From a virus: DNA of 37,798 nt. This document shows positions 6,088 through 21,830 of this stretch, one piece after another; positions within the stretch are counted from its first letter, which is position 1; every line of letters starts with the position of its first letter. Made by a program: the position numbers and the translations under genes. The stretch is taken from the UHGV virus genome UHGV-1315295; one strand, given 5' to 3'. The notes under the pieces were generated by a model, which searched no databases, was not told where the DNA came from, and saw only the letters and a program-made list of their open reading frames with translations.

Positions 6088-6299
6088 TGGCGGTTACACT
6101 GACAGGTCTGGAAATCGAAAAAACAAGCGGCTACTGGCGTGCCAAAGGGTTCAAGCAGTCCGGCGTACTGGAACGACTGGAACGTGAAGATGGGTATATT
6201 GTTCACCAGCGACGTGAATGGCGCATGTACGATCCGGAAACAGGTAAGCTCGCAACGAAGGCCGGGACACTCTGGGGTCTGCTGAAGAAAATCCACTGA
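6084..6299 (+). CDS. Hypothetical protein (71 aa)
   Basis: ORF track; start overlaps the upstream stop, suggesting translational coupling with 5752-6087. Confidence 0.4.
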   Translation: MMAVTLTGLEIEKTSGYWRAKGFKQSGVLERLEREDGYIVHQRREWRMYDPETGKLATKAGTLWGLLKKIH

Positions 6300-6308
6300 T
6301 AACACTAT

Positions 6309-6946
6309 CCACTGCGGTGAGTAGCCAGCTCACCGCGTGTGAATCCGGCTCATAACCACTGTAGCGAGTAGAACACCCTTCAGGTATGCACCCCAACCAC
6401 TGTAGTGAGTAGAACACCATTCGGGTATGCACCCCAACCACTGTAGTGAGCAACCCCCCTGCCACGATATCAACTATCCACTGTAGTGAGTAAATTGGTG
6501 ATTATCGGGGTCGCTATACACTGTAGTGAGTAAACAGGCGTTCACTGACTACAAACAACCACTATAGAGAGTGATGGAATGCTCCCTCCAGCGGATATCC
6601 ACTATGGAGAGTAAATCTTCGCTGTTTTAAACGGATATCCACTCACTACAGTGGATAGAGGTCAAGTCAGCCAATTCTGCTCTTCACAGTGGATAGTCAA
6701 CAATGAGGAGAGCGACGATAACCGCTGTAGAGAGTAGACTTAACAGAGATACCCAGTGACCGCTAACCTCTCAGCCCTTGTTTTATCTATGTTTGCAACC
6801 ACTAACATTTACTTCGCGATTTGTGCGCACTGCCTACAGTGGTTATTCTTCGGTTTCTTTTACTCACTACAGTGGATATTGCATTTCCGATAAACAAAAA
6901 GGCTCACTACAGTAGATAGTGAGCCTTTTTACTCTCTACAGTGGTT
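6309..6946. repeat. Iteron array downstream of repA (incA-like copy-control locus): about 15 copies of CCACTGTAGTGAGTA-type repeat in both orientations
   Basis: Copies at 6309-6323, 6356-6370, 6397-6411, 6438-6452, 6478-6492, 6518-6532, 6559-6573, 6599-6613, 6722-6736 (forward) and 6641-6654, 6682-6696, 6834-6846, 6861-6878, 6903-6918, 6931-6946 (reverse); includes a 41-bp tandem duplication 6356-6396/6397-6437. Confidence 0.8.
6896..6930. terminator. Bidirectional hairpin terminator at the repA 3' end, incorporating an iteron
   Basis: AAAAA-AGGCTCACTA-cagtag-TAGTGAGCCT-TTTTT: 10-bp perfect stem with A-run and T-run on either side. Confidence 0.5.
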
Positions 6947-6949
6947 GGG

Positions 6950-8005
6950 CTATTTGCGAGCCTTTGCCTTGCGCAGCTCTTCGAGAATCGCCAGTTCTTC
7001 CTTGCTCAACATGACCATTTCCCCGTCTTTTTCTTCAGGGGCAACATCGATAATGTCCTCCGGATCATCACCTGGCAAGATATCTTCTGGCTCTTCAGGC
7101 GTAGCCATAGATGGCGGCAGTGCCGAACGTAACTTCGGCCGTCTATAGTGGATGACGAAGTAGACCGAGCTGCCGCGTTTCACTTCAGTGTAATCGAGAT
7201 AGCCGATCTCTCGCAGCTGCTCCATCGCCTTCCTGACTGTCGCATTCTGGGTAATGGTGCGGCTGGTTAAGTTAAGTCTGGCGCGTAAGCGAGCCAATGA
7301 GATTGGCGCCGGGTCTGGTGGCAAACTTTCAATGAAGGTGTAGAGCGCCTGCGCGGATTCTTTTCTGGAGAGTTCGTTGATGGCCCGAAGTTGCAAAAGC
7401 ACCTTTTTGTCGAACTGGTAAAGTTCGAAAATCTTAGGATCGGCCTTCAGTTCGACCGTGTCATTCTTGGTACTGTACTTTGCCGTCTGCACAAGGTGCG
7501 TAACGTAATACTCTTCAGAGCCTTTGCTGCGGAATGAGATGGTGTTTGTGGCGATACGACTTAGAGAGCTGTCCAGGCGCTTACGTAACTTCGCGGACGA
7601 TCTGGCTGTTGGTATGCCACAAAGTCTGACGAACTCGACGAACGGCAACGTGACGGTGTCACCAACAACCTTGTGCTTGGCGAACGCGTGGATGATGCCC
7701 ACCCATGTTTTGAAATCGTTATCCATATCAAGACGAAGACCAGCAATCCTTATATCCTCGTACCCTTCGGCTTTGGCCAGAGACAGCTGTTTGAGTTCAG
7801 CGGAGGCGTCCATAGAGACCATTTGCCCCTTTCTACCCCTGGATGTCGATTTCAGCGTCGGAACGAAGAGACCAAGACGCATCAGAGCAACAGGTTGAAC
7901 TGTGTTGTTGGTGTTAGGAACTAACGTAACAACTTCGCCGGTCTTTTTGTCTGTTTCGGAAAATGCTTCGCTTATCGCAATGTTTTTATTGTCGTTTACG
8001 CTCAT
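6950..8005 (-). CDS. repA: Replication initiator RepA (P1/IncY-type iteron-binding initiator)
   Basis: 351 aa; blocks [64 protein letters not shown] match my recollection of P1 RepA; flanked on both sides by iterons. Confidence 0.8.
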
Positions 8006-8048
8006 TCCAAATGTCTCTTTTTATTCGACGGCTTGGGTGCCTTTACTG

Positions 8049-8168
8049 ATTACAGTGGATAGTAGCACCCATCACAGTGGTTATCCTACCGCCTACAGCG
8101 GTTTTTCTACTCTCCATAGTGGTTGATTTACTCTCTATAGTGGTTGTTATTCTCACTATAGTGGATAT
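8049..8168. repeat. Iteron cluster 1 upstream of repA (origin/incC-like), 6 copies
   Basis: ACAGTGGATAG, CACAGTGGTTAT, CTACAGCGGTTTT, CTCCATAGTGGTTG, CTCTATAGTGGTTG, CACTATAGTGGATA; same family as the downstream iterons. Confidence 0.75.
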
Positions 8169-8214
8169 CGATAACCTCTAAAGCCATGTGGCACAACGGT
8201 TTGCAGGGGCCGGG

Positions 8215-8273
8215 GATCTCTTTGGGTCTTTGTGGTTCTCTTTGGTTCTAACAGGGATCTGAATTACTGGATC
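8215..8273. promoter_or_regulatory. GATC cluster 1 (3 Dam sites) adjacent to iteron cluster 1
   Basis: GATC at 8215, 8256, 8270 within GGGATCTC / GGGATCTG / GGATCGAG heptamer-like units. Confidence 0.4.
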
Positions 8274-8446
8274 GAGCCTGTGTATAAAAATCAGATAATT
8301 ACAAAATCAGGCATCACTCCCCTTCTGGGGATAATGTGTGATCGAAATAAACACGCCGCAACGCAAAATTTACAATATTTCCAAGAATATCAGCCATCTG
8401 CCGCAGAAAAACAGGCTCGGAGTTATCCAGTTAAAACATTGTCTCC

Positions 8447-8551
8447 TACTCACTACAGTGGATACCGACTACTCTCCAGAGAGGTTGTTTTGCTCTTCAT
8501 AGCGGTTATTATGCTCTCTACAGTGGTTATTTTGCTCCCTATAGTGGATAG
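8447..8551. repeat. Iteron cluster 2 (5 copies), a second origin-like module
   Basis: TACTCACTACAGTGGATA, CTCTTCATAGCGGTTAT, CTCTCTACAGTGGTTAT, CTCCCTATAGTGGATAG plus one degenerate copy. Confidence 0.7.
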
Positions 8552-8590
8552 TAACCCCTTCTCAAGCCAGTAACCGCAAGCGCTGGAGAC

Positions 8591-8648
8591 GATCGGGGAT
8601 CTCTTTTGATCTTCTGTAGGATCTCTCTGGGGATCTAAATATTGGATC
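8591..8648. promoter_or_regulatory. GATC cluster 2: six GATC sites in 58 bp
   Basis: GATC at 8591, 8598, 8608, 8620, 8632, 8645; the flank resembles the 8205-8280 segment (duplicated module). Confidence 0.5.
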
Positions 8649-8747
8649 GGACCTGTGAATAAAGTGAATAAGTAAACAGGCATTTGCAAACTCCGGTGCG
8701 CCTTATCCGTTATCGTTGCCCCGGACAAAATTATTTGAACAAGAATT

Positions 8748-9392
8748 ATGGATCTTAAACGCACGCGCTGGGTTCGCCGTCTTGAAGATGGCTCCTACAC
8801 CATTGAATCAAACACTAGTCTGAACAAACTGAAGTTGCTCTGCGACCTTTGCGGCATTGCTTCGAAATGCCCGATTAACGAAACCCGGCTTAAACTCCAC
8901 GACGCCGGTGCGCATTTCCACCTAAACAGCTGCATACGTTACGTGCCACTACTAGCATTTCGTAAACCGATCATCGGATTGGATGCTCCCTACTTCAACA
9001 CACTGCGCTCTGGTGTCACTTGGCGAGATCGTGTCGAACCTGGCAAACTCGTTTGTCTGGTTGAAGCTGATACCGGAAATATCATCCGGTTCGGGAGAGT
9101 TGATAAGGTCTACTCAGGCCCGGTGGATGAAATGCTGCGGAAACACAGCCGATTTAACCATCTCTGCATGGGCGGAGAGAAGATTGAGAAGGTTGGCGAA
9201 GTAATTCGCAAATCTTACGGACACTTTCTGAATGATAACAGCCTTCTGACAGCCATTTACATTCGCCATGTCGATCGGGAGTTCGACACGGAGTATCACA
9301 GTGTTGAAGAGTTGAATCTTGTAGACCCTCGTCCAAAAGCTGGGGTAATAGACATCAGCAGAGCGCGTCAGAAGCCCTCAGAGACGTTTTAA
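8748..9392 (+). CDS. Hypothetical protein (214 aa)
   Basis: ORF track; first gene after the origin-like region. Confidence 0.5.
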   Translation: MDLKRTRWVRRLEDGSYTIESNTSLNKLKLLCDLCGIASKCPINETRLKLHDAGAHFHLNSCIRYVPLLAFRKPIIGLDAPYFNTLRSGVTWRDRVEPGKLVCLVEADTGNIIRFGRVDKVYSGPVDEMLRKHSRFNHLCMGGEKIEKVGEVIRKSYGHFLNDNSLLTAIYIRHVDREFDTEYHSVEELNLVDPRPKAGVIDISRARQKPSETF

Positions 9393-9788: not shown

Positions 9789-10874
9789 ATGACATTGCCA
9801 TACGGGGTAATATCAGATCCCCATTATCATCGTTGGGATGCTTTTGCGACAACAAACGCTGACGGGCTTAACTCTCGGCTGGAGATCCAACTGGACGCTA
9901 CGAAGGAGGCGGCCAAAGCGATGAAAGCTGCTGGCTGTAAGCACATGCTGGTAGCTGGTGATACCTTCCATGTTCGCGGTGCTATATCACCTTCCGTTCT
10001 GCATTTCGTGACCGAAACTTACGAGTGGATCATCAAAGAGTTGGGTCTCAAGGTGGTAATGCTGGCTGGCAACCACGACCTCGAAACCAACAATTCCGTA
10101 TACAGCGCCAATGCAGCAGCCTCTCTGCGCTCAATCGGTGTGGAAATCGTCTGCGGCAAACGTCCTCATTCCATCAAAATGGGCGACGTAACCGTCCATC
10201 TGATTAGCTGGCGTAATAACCACGCAGAACTTATCAGCGATCTCAAAACGCTGCGTTCCGGGCTGGATGGTGACAACCATGATGTTGTTGTACATACCTC
10301 AATCAACAAAGCGATCCCCACCATGCCCGATGTCGGCATCGACGCACAGGAACTGAAAGATATCGGCTTCCGTTTATTGTTGTCCGGGCACTACCACAAC
10401 CACAAAGAAGTGCTGCCTGGAGTGGTAAGTATCGGGGCGCTGACACACCAGAATTGGGGGGATGTTGGTTCACTGGCCGGCTTCATGATCGTCAAACCGG
10501 ACGGCTCATTCACTCACCACGAAACCTCGGCACCTAAATTCGTGAACCTTGAGGACGATGTAGATGACGATCAGATTCGCGGCAACTACGTGCGCTTCCG
10601 TGCCGTTGTTGAGAGCGATGAAGAAGGCATCAAACTTCAGAACGTCCTGAAAACAATGGGCGCGAAGGGTGTCGTCTGCAACTTCATTCGCAAGGCATCG
10701 ATGATGGAAGGCGCTGCCAGTACTGCGGAAACCAGCAAAATTGACAGCCTGGGCGAGTCCGTTGCGGCGTACTGCAAGATCGTTCACGACACTGACGGTG
10801 GCTTCGACCTGAGCAAGCTGGACATACTGTGTCAGGAGATCTTGACCGAAGCAGAGAGTGCGGAGGCTGTGTGA
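9789..10874 (+). CDS. sbcD: SbcD/Mre11-family metallophosphoesterase nuclease
   Basis: Motifs DPHYH, GDTFH, GNHD, GHYH typical of calcineurin-like phosphoesterase nucleases; immediately upstream of an SbcC/Rad50-like ATPase. Confidence 0.75.
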   Translation: MTLPYGVISDPHYHRWDAFATTNADGLNSRLEIQLDATKEAAKAMKAAGCKHMLVAGDTFHVRGAISPSVLHFVTETYEWIIKELGLKVVMLAGNHDLETNNSVYSANAAASLRSIGVEIVCGKRPHSIKMGDVTVHLISWRNNHAELISDLKTLRSGLDGDNHDVVVHTSINKAIPTMPDVGIDAQELKDIGFRLLLSGHYHNHKEVLPGVVSIGALTHQNWGDVGSLAGFMIVKPDGSFTHHETSAPKFVNLEDDVDDDQIRGNYVRFRAVVESDEEGIKLQNVLKTMGAKGVVCNFIRKASMMEGAASTAETSKIDSLGESVAAYCKIVHDTDGGFDLSKLDILCQEILTEAESAEAV

Positions 10875-10915
10875 GGCAACGTTATTATGGGAGCTTTCGA
10901 GAGTTTGCCATCGTG

Positions 10916-11107
10916 ATGAAAAAACTTCAAAAAGGCCAGACGGTTATGTTTCACAAGCCATACCCTTCAGGAGGAAATCCCGTAGCGTTTTATCTTGGAA
11001 GGCTAACCAGAAAAGGCTTATTGAATCGCAGATCCTTCCCCGCGCATACGGAGTTCAGATTGAAAGATGGTCAAAAGTTAACACACGATATCAGAGGTGT
11101 TATATGA
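10916..11107 (+). CDS. Possible small protein (63 aa) in the sbcD-sbcC gap, stop overlapping the sbcC start
   Basis: ATG 10916 in frame with track ORF 10829-11107; TGA 11105-11107 overlaps ATG 11104; weak RBS. Confidence 0.25.
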   Translation: MKKLQKGQTVMFHKPYPSGGNPVAFYLGRLTRKGLLNRRSFPAHTEFRLKDGQKLTHDIRGVI

Positions 11108-13020
11108 AGTTTTTAAAGCTCCAGGTTGAAAATTTTATGGCAATCGCCAGCGCAGAAGTCGAGTTAGACCAGCGTGGACTGGTGCTGATCCAGGGTGTGA
11201 ACAGTGGCGATACGTCTGCTGCCAGCAATGGCGCCGGGAAATCCACTCTGATGAATAGCTTAATGTGGTGTCTGTATGGTGAGACTGCACATGGCGTCAA
11301 AGGCGATGATGTGCTGTCGACGGGCCATGAGAAGAACTGCCGTGTGATGGTTACAGTTGAAGACGAAGGTAAGAAATACGCGATCATTCGCCATCGTAAA
11401 CACAAAGAGTTCAAGAACCGACTAATCGTCCGTGGTGAAGACGGTGATATGACCAAAGGCAAGGACACGCTGACACAGACGTTCGTAGAACGTCTGATTG
11501 GGGCATCGAAAGAGGTGTTCATGGCGTCCATCTACGCCAGTCAGGAAGCGATGCCAGATCTGCCCGGTATGTCCGACAAGAGCCTCAAAACCATCGTTGA
11601 AGAAGCTGCTGGCGTCGACCGATTGACGCGAGCCTATGCCATTGCCCGCGAGCGTGCTAATGCAGCTGCCGCACGTATGGACGTTACCAAATCCAAAATG
11701 GACGCCTGTCTCACGCTTATCGAGACTGCACAGTCAGAGATTGAGGCGGCCAAAGCGTCCTCTGAAAGCTGGGAGCGCGATCGCGGCGAGCGTCTGGACA
11801 AGGCCCGAGCCGATTTGGCTGGCGCGGAGGTAACACTGTCTGAAGTCGAGATGGAAATTCGCTCGCTGCCGGAACAGATCCGTGATACGGAAAACGCGAT
11901 TGCTGGCGAACGCAGCAAGCTGGCCTCCAAAGAAGAGCATGACGCCAAACTGCTGAAGGTGCGCAGTGCTATTACTGAGATCCACTCAAGCATCCGTACT
12001 TCAGAAGCGGCACAGAACGAGTCGATAAACCGTGCTCGCTCGTTTAAAACCAAAGCTGAAGAGGTCAGCACAAAGATCGGGGCACCCTGCATTACGTGCG
12101 GAAAGCCCTACTGCGAAGAAGATTTATCCACGGTGAAGGAGAGCTTCATTGAACAAGCGCGCAATGAGATCGGCCTTGCGCAGACATCAGCAGCGGCAGT
12201 GGCTCAACACAAGGCTCGTCTTGAGAAAGCGCTCGGTATCGAGTCTGCACTGGTCGCAGCCACACCCGACGTCTCAGAAATCATCTCCACAATAGAACGC
12301 CTGACCAATGAGCTAAGTGCGCTGCGTCATCGCGAACGTGAAGTTGTGGCCGTCGAAGCGATGGTTGCGCGGGCGCGTACTGAAGTGAATCGCATCATGG
12401 CGGAAGCAAACCCATTTCTGGCCGTTATTAAGCGCCATGAAGACAACCTGGCTGCCAATAAATCTAATCATGCAGTACTTAAAAATGAGTTAAAGAGCAT
12501 TCAGGAACAGGCTCTGTTGCTGGAGAAGGCCCGCCAGGTTTACTCCCCAGCAGGCGTGCGTTCACACATCCTGACCTCCGTTACGCCTTTCCTGAACATC
12601 AGGACTGCGGAGTATCTCAACACGCTGTCGGACGGCAATATCGTTGCCGAATGGTCGACAATGGAGACAACGAAGAAAGGTGAGTATCGCGACAAATTCA
12701 ATATCAGCGTAATCAAAACAGGCTCCAGCAAATCCTTCCAGACTTTGTCTGGTGGTGAGAAGCGTAAGGTACGTATTGCGTGCTCTCTGGCTTTGCAGGA
12801 TCTGGTTGCCAGTCGCGCCAGTAAGAATATCGAGCTATTTATCGGTGATGAAATTGACGACGCGCTCGACACAGCCGGTCTGGAGCGTCTCATGGGGATT
12901 CTGGAAGCCAAAGCGCGTGAACGTGGCACAGTGATGATCATCTCCCACAAAGAGATGAAATCGTGGTTCCGGGAAATTATCACTGTCGAAGTTAAAGAGG
13001 GGCGCAGCTATGTCGTTTAA
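11104..13020 (+). CDS. sbcC: SbcC/Rad50-family ATPase with zinc-hook CxxC
   Basis: Start MKFLKLQVENF with GAGGTG RBS; Walker A GAGKST; CITCGKPYC hook near 12086-12112; ABC signature LSGGEKRK; Walker B LFIGDEIDD. The track start 10858 gives an implausible N-terminal extension. Confidence 0.75.
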   Translation: MKFLKLQVENFMAIASAEVELDQRGLVLIQGVNSGDTSAASNGAGKSTLMNSLMWCLYGETAHGVKGDDVLSTGHEKNCRVMVTVEDEGKKYAIIRHRKHKEFKNRLIVRGEDGDMTKGKDTLTQTFVERLIGASKEVFMASIYASQEAMPDLPGMSDKSLKTIVEEAAGVDRLTRAYAIARERANAAAARMDVTKSKMDACLTLIETAQSEIEAAKASSESWERDRGERLDKARADLAGAEVTLSEVEMEIRSLPEQIRDTENAIAGERSKLASKEEHDAKLLKVRSAITEIHSSIRTSEAAQNESINRARSFKTKAEEVSTKIGAPCITCGKPYCEEDLSTVKESFIEQARNEIGLAQTSAAAVAQHKARLEKALGIESALVAATPDVSEIISTIERLTNELSALRHREREVVAVEAMVARARTEVNRIMAEANPFLAVIKRHEDNLAANKSNHAVLKNELKSIQEQALLLEKARQVYSPAGVRSHILTSVTPFLNIRTAEYLNTLSDGNIVAEWSTMETTKKGEYRDKFNISVIKTGSSKSFQTLSGGEKRKVRIACSLALQDLVASRASKNIELFIGDEIDDALDTAGLERLMGILEAKARERGTVMIISHKEMKSWFREIITVEVKEGRSYVV

Positions 13021-21236: not shown

Positions 21237-21830
21237 ATGATCGCAGCCGAAAAAATCAAAAAGCGAGAGCGTGATGCCTCTCTTCGCGACCTTTGGCGAA
21301 CACCGCAGTGGTTGTTTGTCGCCATCCAACGTTACATAGGCGTAAAGTTCGATGTGGACGTCGCCTGCAACAAAGATAATGCTCTCCTGCTGAACTTTAT
21401 CGGTGTTGAGCGTGATGCGCTCAAGTGCAGTTGGGGAGAACCTGGCACTGTGGCGTTCCTTAACCCGCCCTACTCCAAAATCACCCCCTGGATAGACGCA
21501 GCCATTCGCGAGCAGGCGCGTGGAGTGACGACGGTCATGCTGATACCACAATCCCTCGATACGCAGTGGTACGAGCGTGCGGCTGAATGCGCCAACGAAA
21601 CCGTCATCTTGTCTGGCGGCCGCGTGGCGTTCGTTGAGCCGGATGTTGAACTTGGGCTGGTGGAGGTGAACATCAACCCTGGTGGCAGCATGTTGCTTAT
21701 CTTCCGTGGCTACTGTCAGGAAGCTGGGCACACCATCAGCAAGATACCGCTGGCGGTGATGAAAAAGCTGGGTGGTTATGACCCTGCCAATGTTGTCAGG
21801 AAGAAGAGACCACGTAAAAAGGCAGCGTAA
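21237..21830 (+). CDS. Phage-type N6-adenine DNA methyltransferase (Dam-like)
   Basis: LWRTPQWLF...VDVACNKDNA...AFLNPPYS (NPPY catalytic motif); layout typical of phage Dam-type methyltransferases. Confidence 0.75.
   Translation: MIAAEKIKKRERDASLRDLWRTPQWLFVAIQRYIGVKFDVDVACNKDNALLLNFIGVERDALKCSWGEPGTVAFLNPPYSKITPWIDAAIREQARGVTTVMLIPQSLDTQWYERAAECANETVILSGGRVAFVEPDVELGLVEVNINPGGSMLLIFRGYCQEAGHTISKIPLAVMKKLGGYDPANVVRKKRPRKKAA

Follow-up and report, generated by a model that had tools for sequence, protein, structure and literature searches.

The origin region located upstream of repA in the phage-plasmid analysed here contains two diverged paralogous copies of one unit resembling the oriR of P1. 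The region occupies positions 8006–8747 of a stretch of 37,798 nucleotides (the window) and, together with repA and a further iteron array at 6305–6948, it represents, judging from the sequence, the plasmid-maintenance replicon of the element, an iteron replicon of the P1/RepFIB class in a phage-plasmid of the SSU5/pHCM2/pMT1 type. We propose that the module distant from repA (distal, module 2) is the Dam/SeqA-coupled origin, and that the module adjacent to repA (proximal, module 1) is its diverged paralogue, acting as the repA operator and as an auxiliary RepA/DnaA site. We give this assignment an even chance of being correct.

Element and Gene Context

The window belongs to an SSU5-like phage-plasmid. 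Its segment 7900–8800 is 99.8% identical to E. coli plasmids (e.g., NZ_CP010244) and around 90% identical to Salmonella phage SSU5, S. enterica plasmids of ~106 kb, which we take to be of the pHCM2 type, and Y. pestis pMT1-type plasmids. Phage Cyrano shows 77% identity to the origin region. The genes referred to below are as follows.

6950–8005, minus strand: repA, Rep_3-family initiator, 351 aa (Pfam Rep3_N + Rep3_C)
8748–9392, plus strand: divergent 214-aa ORF bounding the origin region (no Pfam match; membership in the replicon not implied)
21237–21830, plus strand: element-encoded Dam-family adenine methyltransferase (PF05869, E = 1.5e-36)

Since repA is encoded on the minus strand, region 8006–8747 constitutes a divergent intergenic region between repA and the 214-aa ORF. 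RepA matches Rep3_N (PF01051, E = 2.4e-11) and Rep3_C (PF21205, E = 4.9e-4, slightly under the curated cut-off with 20.7 vs 21.1 bits), and shares 93% of its amino acids with SSU5 RepA, 70% with RepB of a Pantoea plasmid, 59% with pKPN3 RepB and 46% with P1 RepA. It is the only rep gene seen near the origin repeats, and the relatives of the element are maintained as plasmids. The Dam-like methyltransferase, already recognized in the preliminary description of this DNA, could methylate the GATC sites of the origin.

The 214-aa ORF gave no Pfam match at E ≤ 0.01; its homologue is hypothetical in the SSU5 record and an ASCH-domain protein in the Cyrano record. This conserved ORF stays beside the origin across differing repA types. 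Directly past it lie the genes for an SbcD-like metallophosphoesterase (9789–10874) and an SbcC/Rad50-like ATPase (10858–13020). ORFs 8232–8573 (plus) and 8453–8764 (minus) within the origin region were discarded, with no annotation there in any related record, and the Rfam search yielded no known RNA in the intergenic region. The lone Rfam match, Thr_leader at 6869–6933 inside the downstream iterons (24 bits vs a 55-bit threshold, E = 0.14), almost certainly arose by chance.

Anatomy of the Origin Region

The elements of the replicon are listed below in the order of their coordinates.

6305–6948, strand not assigned: incA-like control array downstream of repA, ~16–17 iterons with ~40-bp spacing (matrix scans)
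8039–8168, plus strand: proximal iteron array (module 1), 6 iterons, 21–22 bp phasing (matrix scan)
8155–8182, minus strand: sigma-70-like promoter candidate facing repA, TTTAGA-16-TATAGT (consensus match only)
8211–8275, plus strand: module 1 core, phased GATC-type repeats, GATC at 8215, 8256 and 8270 plus three degraded units
8279–8287, minus strand: module 1 DnaA box TTATACACA, fitting TTATNCACA, at a position homologous to the module 2 box
8326–8334: weaker DnaA-type box TTATCCCCA of module 1
8336–8441, strand not assigned: inter-module spacer, neutral-rate except for an invariant AGTTATCCA
8442–8551, plus strand: distal iteron array (module 2), 5 iterons, 21–23 bp phasing (matrix scan)
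8590–8650, plus strand: module 2 core, six GATC in 58 bp, GATCTnTT-type repeats
8654–8671, minus strand: module 2 tandem DnaA boxes TGTGAATAA + AGTGAATAA, aligning with the annotated DnaA site of P1

The iterons of both upstream arrays share a single orientation and a consensus of approximately TTTACTCTCTAYAGTGGWTAT, with scores of 19–30 bits. About 4 iteron matches at ≥8 bits are expected in a shuffled window, and the real matches nearly all cluster around repA; the same scan recovers the annotated 5 + 9 iterons of P1. The two upstream clusters had been placed at 8049–8168 and 8447–8551 before, in good agreement with the arrays found here, of which the proximal one begins 34 bp from the repA start codon. 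The downstream array was absent from that account. It is composed of two opposed blocks, mostly inverted iterons at 6305–6618 and mostly direct ones at 6635–6948, and the mechanical ORF overlapping it (6151–6465, minus strand) is probably spurious. A lone iteron-like match (17.6 bits) lies inside the repA coding sequence at 7132–7155 on the plus strand.

The GATC clusters reported after each array, three sites at 8215–8273 and six at 8591–8648, were confirmed. The sites of module 2 start at 8591, 8598, 8608, 8620, 8632 and 8645 (spacing 7/10/12/12/13), and no other part of the window is as dense in GATC. In 1000 Markov-1 simulations of the window, a group of six within 60 bp was never encountered (P < 0.001), and five occurred in 0.4% of them. 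The core of module 2 is presumed to be the Dam-methylated unwinding and SeqA-binding region. Three GATC within 60 bp are expected by chance ~2.3 times per window, so the proximal cluster, not significant alone, gains meaning only from its homology with the distal cluster. Its degraded units read GGGTCT (8224–8229), GGTTCT (8234–8239) and GGTTCT (8244–8249).

DnaA sites had previously been described as partial matches only. This holds for the two sequences then considered, TTATCCAGT (8423–8431) and TTATCCGTT (8703–8711), but better boxes are present at 8279–8287 and 8654–8662, that is, at homologous positions of the two modules. The latter reads TTATTCACA on the minus strand, fits TTATNCACA and is directly adjoined by the second box at 8663–8671; both sit in the least stable 40-mer of module 2. 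At the position of the module 1 box, Cyrano carries a perfect TTATCCACA. The two modules end in equally unstable AT-rich stretches, ~2 SD less stable than the window average. TTATCCAGT is contained in the invariant AGTTATCCA of the spacer, ~11 bp left of the distal iterons, and is unchanged in five relatives; TTATCCGTT is without conservation.

The promoter candidate at 8155–8182 is the only one facing repA. It overlaps the outermost proximal iteron, its match is weak and its -35 element is weakly conserved. An imperfect palindrome of two inverted iteron 3' halves (AGTGGATATC / GATAACCTCT) at 8156–8183, where the proximal array has its outer end, overlaps this promoter-like site. The dimeric Rep proteins of F and pPS10 bind inverted-repeat operators, which this palindrome resembles; a RepE-type operator at this position was set aside, however, as the palindrome is without conservation in Pantoea.

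Two Diverged Copies of a P1-Like Unit

Alignment of 8074–8314 with 8455–8683 gave 180 identities in 253 positions (71%) over ~245 bp, with a score of 114 against 18.5 ± 2.1 for shuffled sequences, which bears out the resemblance of the two GATC segments noticed earlier. The distal core (8558–8681) aligned with the oriR core of P1 at 93 of 131 positions (71%; score 61 vs 18 ± 2.4 for shuffles). Between the two origins, GATC units and DnaA boxes correspond one to one, the fifth unit of P1 being degraded (GGACCT), and the tandem DnaA boxes are homologous column for column to the annotated 18-bp DnaA site of P1. For the proximal core, the alignment with P1 was marginal (29 vs a shuffle maximum of 28). 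With the relatedness of the initiators, the alignment of the distal module makes P1 oriR an apt comparison, as had been suggested.

Distribution among Relatives

The double module is shared by every close relative, Y. pestis pMT1, S. Typhi pHCM2-type plasmids and phage SSU5 among them, and by phage Cyrano, and 270 of 279 plasmid matches cover at least 80% of the origin-region query, double module included. SSU5, pMT1 and Cyrano carry both modules with identical GATC positions, and two modules are also found in a 170-kb plasmid of Pantoea agglomerans (RepA 70% identical). A species-level survey by RepA alignment, with one genome per species, recovered 80 loci, 78 of which were classified. Arrays were called by per-locus de novo iteron matrices, which reproduce the annotated 5 + 9 iterons of P1; they replaced a fixed-consensus matcher that was too strict and missed the window's own second array. 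Two upstream arrays were present in 42 of the 78 loci, spread across Enterobacterales in genera including Pantoea, Rahnella and Erwinia, and one array in 32. The preliminary description regarded the tandem duplication as unusual. The two modules are real, but they are neither rare nor specific to this element, and the double module is, to judge by its distribution, an old and conserved trait of the whole plasmid family rather than a recent oddity.

The two modules differ consistently. In the two-array loci, the distal array is followed by 4–7 GATC (mostly 5–6; at least five in 41 of 42) and the proximal one by 0–5 (mostly 3–4). The distal count exceeds the proximal one in 41 of the 42 loci, which are not phylogenetically independent, and is never lower; both cores hold at least three GATC in 34. 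Of the 42 loci, 29 carry a TTATNCACA box on the right side of the distal array, 10 carry one on the right side of the proximal array and 24 carry one just left of the distal array. The TTATCCAGT of the window occupies this last position, where Pantoea, Rahnella and Buttiauxella carry a perfect TTATGCACA or TTATCCACA. Each of the 11 lineages inspected shows a degraded second GATC unit in the proximal core, altered by substitutions that vary between lineages; the first and the last two units are kept and the third is often degraded. Six lineages (L013, L017, L031, L049, L069 and L026) have lost the proximal core while keeping the proximal iterons. Loss of the distal core was observed in none of the 42 two-array lineages. 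The Xenorhabdus loci L060, L061 and L063 are intermediate in architecture, with two iteron arrays of which just the distal one is followed by a complete GATC core.

A single origin set, ascribed to P1 in the preliminary description, was indeed found there, and likewise in pKPN3 and in SSU5-like sibling phage-plasmids with a different RepA (48–50% identical) and the iteron ACCGCTGACAGCATA. Single-module relatives with a distal-like core of 5–7 GATC comprise P1, PhiR41_1, Klebsiella phage-plasmids, pKPN3 and Pantoea LPP-1-like loci. The pKPN3 locus (L005, 2345–3095) shows an intermediate architecture, with a complete proximal module and ~3 coreless distal iterons. In the sibling phage-plasmids (L004, 3001–3136; L003, 3001–3158), similarity to the window restarts exactly at the distal GATC core (~8590–8747) and continues into the 214-aa ORF, a pattern suggestive of an exchange of repA + iteron cassettes through recombination inside a shared origin core.

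The tree of 80-bp cores sets the module 1 cores of the window, Cyrano, Y. pestis, Rahnella and one Erwiniaceae locus apart from the module 2 and single-module cores. Modules 1 and 2 of Buttiauxella and Cedecea group together, which could reflect gene conversion or independent duplication. As proof of a single ancient duplication, the tree appears only partly informative.

Selection on the Modules

The window was compared with Cyrano, taking four-fold degenerate sites as the baseline (63% identity in repA, 46% in the neighbouring ORF). The spacer, with 58%, is at the neutral level. The proximal iterons are 86% identical (86–89% overall), the distal iterons 83% (83–85% overall) and the distal core 74% (74–78% overall). 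The proximal core segment 8211–8290 reaches 86% between the window and Cyrano and 94% between pMT1 and Cyrano, and is the most conserved non-coding segment. Purifying selection acts on both modules (74–94% against a baseline of 46–63%) and not on the spacer, which implies that each module has a function of some kind. The view of the proximal module as a simple decaying pseudo-origin was rejected in view of the conservation of its core, unsurpassed among the non-coding segments. The repeats of unwinding elements are recognized by Rep proteins on one strand and in a sequence-specific manner (PMC4081077), and the constraint on the proximal core would fit such recognition of the repeat units or a regulatory role.

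These data also bear on the idea that the arrangement is confined to this element, having arisen by a recent tandem duplication without functional effect or by an error of assembly. Slippage can produce tandem direct repeats, and no other support was found. The copies are only 71% identical, the same arrangement is present in the independent records of pMT1, SSU5 and Cyrano and in 270 plasmids, it extends to 42 species-level lineages with RepA identity down to ~68%, and the spacer has diverged to the neutral level whereas the copies have not. A recent duplication, expected as near-identical copies in one element or a shallow clade, is ruled out by this identity, breadth and neutral spacer, and the reading as a whole is hardly credible.

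Roles of the Two Modules

In the arrangement that we favour, iteron-bound RepA and DnaA would open the GATC-repeat region of the distal copy (8442–8671). Opening is favoured when the 13-mers are methylated and is blocked by SeqA (PMC5043065). Dam methylation would promote distal opening, and once the origin has fired, SeqA would sequester the site in its hemimethylated state. RepA bound to the proximal copy (8039–8287) would autoregulate repA, since repA transcription must start in or cross this copy. The proximal array would add 6 sites for RepA titration and handcuffing, and the GATC-poor but constrained proximal core with its DnaA box probably still binds RepA and DnaA in an auxiliary or regulatory capacity.

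The distal module is most likely the origin because it keeps every canonical feature, including the unit-by-unit match to P1 oriR and the tandem DnaA boxes. The cores of single-module relatives, GATC-rich like the distal one, point in the same direction, as does the retention of the distal core in those lineages that have lost a core. The proximity of the proximal array to the repA ATG (34 bp) and the overlapping promoter candidate argue, by analogy with P1 PrepA, likewise situated inside iterons, for an operator there. Several observations count against this assignment. The proximal core (86–94%) is more conserved than the distal one (74–78%), beyond what a simple operator would predict; the complete core of pKPN3 is the repA-proximal one, so position alone is not decisive; the AT-rich stretches at the ends of the two modules are equally unstable; the P1 origin works despite a degraded GATC unit; the promoter match is weak; and the count of 41 in 42 comes from loci without phylogenetic independence.

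It is possible, if on the whole unlikely, that both modules are active origins, redundant or condition-specific, the distal one tightly controlled by Dam/SeqA to fire once per cycle, and the proximal one less methylation-dependent and less sequestered. The proximal origin could then serve as a backup in hosts or states of differing methylation, or as a second firing mode. Each module has retained its iterons and repeat units as well as a DnaA box and an AT-rich end of low stability. Purifying selection is evident in both, the proximal core being the most constrained segment, and both cores hold at least three GATC in 34 of 42 lineages. Degradation of the same units (the second, often the third) in every sampled lineage looks maintained rather than like free decay. 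Moreover, the P1 origin works with one of its six GATC units degraded (GGACCT), so partial loss of GATC is no proof of inactivity. On the other hand, the proximal core has been wholly lost in six lineages and the distal in none, and its alignment to P1 oriR is marginal. Pantoea LPP-1-like (one module) and LPP-2-like (two modules) plasmids are each reported to be present at about one copy per chromosome (PMC12612815; the module counts come from the LPP-1-like and LPP-2-like loci surveyed here), and the second module therefore does not obviously raise the copy number.

A sharper version, in which two functional origins split one job, strikes us as rather doubtful. The distal origin would be licensed by Dam/SeqA once per cell cycle and the proximal one would fire nearly independently of methylation, its central GATC units having been lost through selection and its iterons, repeat units and DnaA box retained. 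If true, such split origins would form a built-in two-mode initiation switch across pMT1, pHCM2, SSU5 and the Pantoea LPP-2-type plasmids.

The reverse assignment is improbable. Here the proximal module would be the working origin and the distal one an accessory, which might act as a sink for SeqA/RepA, as a partner in handcuffing or in the regulation of the neighbouring rightward gene. The module 1 position is indeed taken by the functional or complete module in P1, pKPN3 and Pantoea LPP-1-like replicons, with iterons ~40–130 bp and GATC ~180–265 bp from repA, and no segment is better conserved than the proximal core; however, the full GATC set, the tandem DnaA boxes and the alignability to P1 oriR belong to the distal module, and where a single core remains, it is the distal one.

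Novelty and Significance

The kind of replicon is well known, and its two-module architecture is apparently an undescribed variant. The literature searched (SSU5, pMT1 and pHCM2 with iterons or origin) holds no description of the tandem double-origin architecture, its breadth or its asymmetry; the original pMT1 and pHCM2 papers fall outside this search and may mention the repeats. A 2026 preprint on phage-plasmid copy number was put aside, the replicon studied there being of an unrelated CopA/IncFII type.

The replicon described here maintains the Y. pestis virulence plasmid pMT1, S. Typhi pHCM2, the SSU5-type phage-plasmids spread in clinical Enterobacteriaceae, and domesticated Pantoea plasmids. 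The models of iteron-plasmid control (P1, F, RepFIB) assume one origin array and one control array. A conserved second unit with consistent loss of methylation sites offers a natural experiment on how initiation, autoregulation and Dam/SeqA sequestration are partitioned among DNA sites. It also bears on replicon typing, on the prediction of incompatibility and on the design of plasmid-curing cassettes; for FIB replicons, the choice of the iteron block matters (PMC11983097).

Comparison with Known Systems

The replicon combines the features of the P1/RepFIB class, i.e., a Rep_3 initiator with WH1 and WH2 domains, phased upstream iterons, a downstream array and a GATC opening region with DnaA boxes, and departs from its canonical single-origin architecture by having two units, where P1, PhiR41_1 and LPP-1-like loci showed one under the same analysis. 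The curated record of P1 lists, outward from repA, five 21-bp-phased incC iterons with PrepA inside them, a 40-bp spacer, five Dam sites and an 18-bp double DnaA site, with nine incA iterons on the far side of repA. The window has the same order outward from repA (21-bp-phased iterons, ~40-bp spacer, Dam-site repeats and two abutting DnaA boxes), also a second iteron array beyond repA, and both are phage-plasmids with their own Dam-family methyltransferase. In contrast to the one origin unit (5 iterons) and nine incA iterons of P1, the window contains two units (6 + 5) and ~16–17 downstream iterons, and the unit best matching P1 oriR is the one farther from repA. The iteron sequences are unrelated (CCAGCACACAT in the window vs CTAYAGTGGWT in P1). 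The notion that everything is doubled relative to P1 (28 vs 14 iterons) was dismissed, as downstream iterons range from 5 to 16 in one- and two-module replicons.

The RepFIB/IncFIB replicons (F, P307, pO157 and the IncFIB(K) pKPN3) encode initiators of the same RepA/RepB family, and PLSDB replicon typing places pMT1 and its relatives in IncFIB. More than 2000 IncFIB-type plasmids, pKPN3 among them, have an origin core ~80% identical to the distal GATC core. In FIB replicons, rep is flanked by upstream origin iterons and by downstream control iterons acting through handcuffing, with one upstream iteron block (BCDD'D'') (PMC11983097), whereas the window has two. In pKPN3, unlike the window, a single GATC core lies beside the proximal iterons and is accompanied by ~3 extra distal iterons without a core.

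The closest likeness is offered by the RepFIB-like plasmids of Pantoea (LPP-2-type), Rahnella, Erwinia, Buttiauxella and Cedecea, which have the same double module with the same asymmetry, RepA proteins 68–77% identical and the same iteron core. Unlike the window element, they are not phage-plasmids; their proximal core usually contains four GATC instead of three, and they are missing the extra 10-bp degraded unit found in the proximal core of the SSU5/pMT1 clade.

R6K (alpha, beta and gamma) also has several initiation sites served by one initiator, its distant origins requiring the gamma iterons through looping. More than one potential initiation site per initiator is common to both systems, but the R6K origins are not tandem paralogues, whereas each unit of the window has its own iterons, repeats and DnaA box. 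With E. coli oriC, the window shares GATCTnTT-type repeats next to the initiator sites and clustered GATC suited to SeqA (PMC4081077; PMC5043065). The oriC has three 13-mers, while the window has six units spaced at about one helical turn, in a plasmid origin that would depend on RepA plus DnaA.
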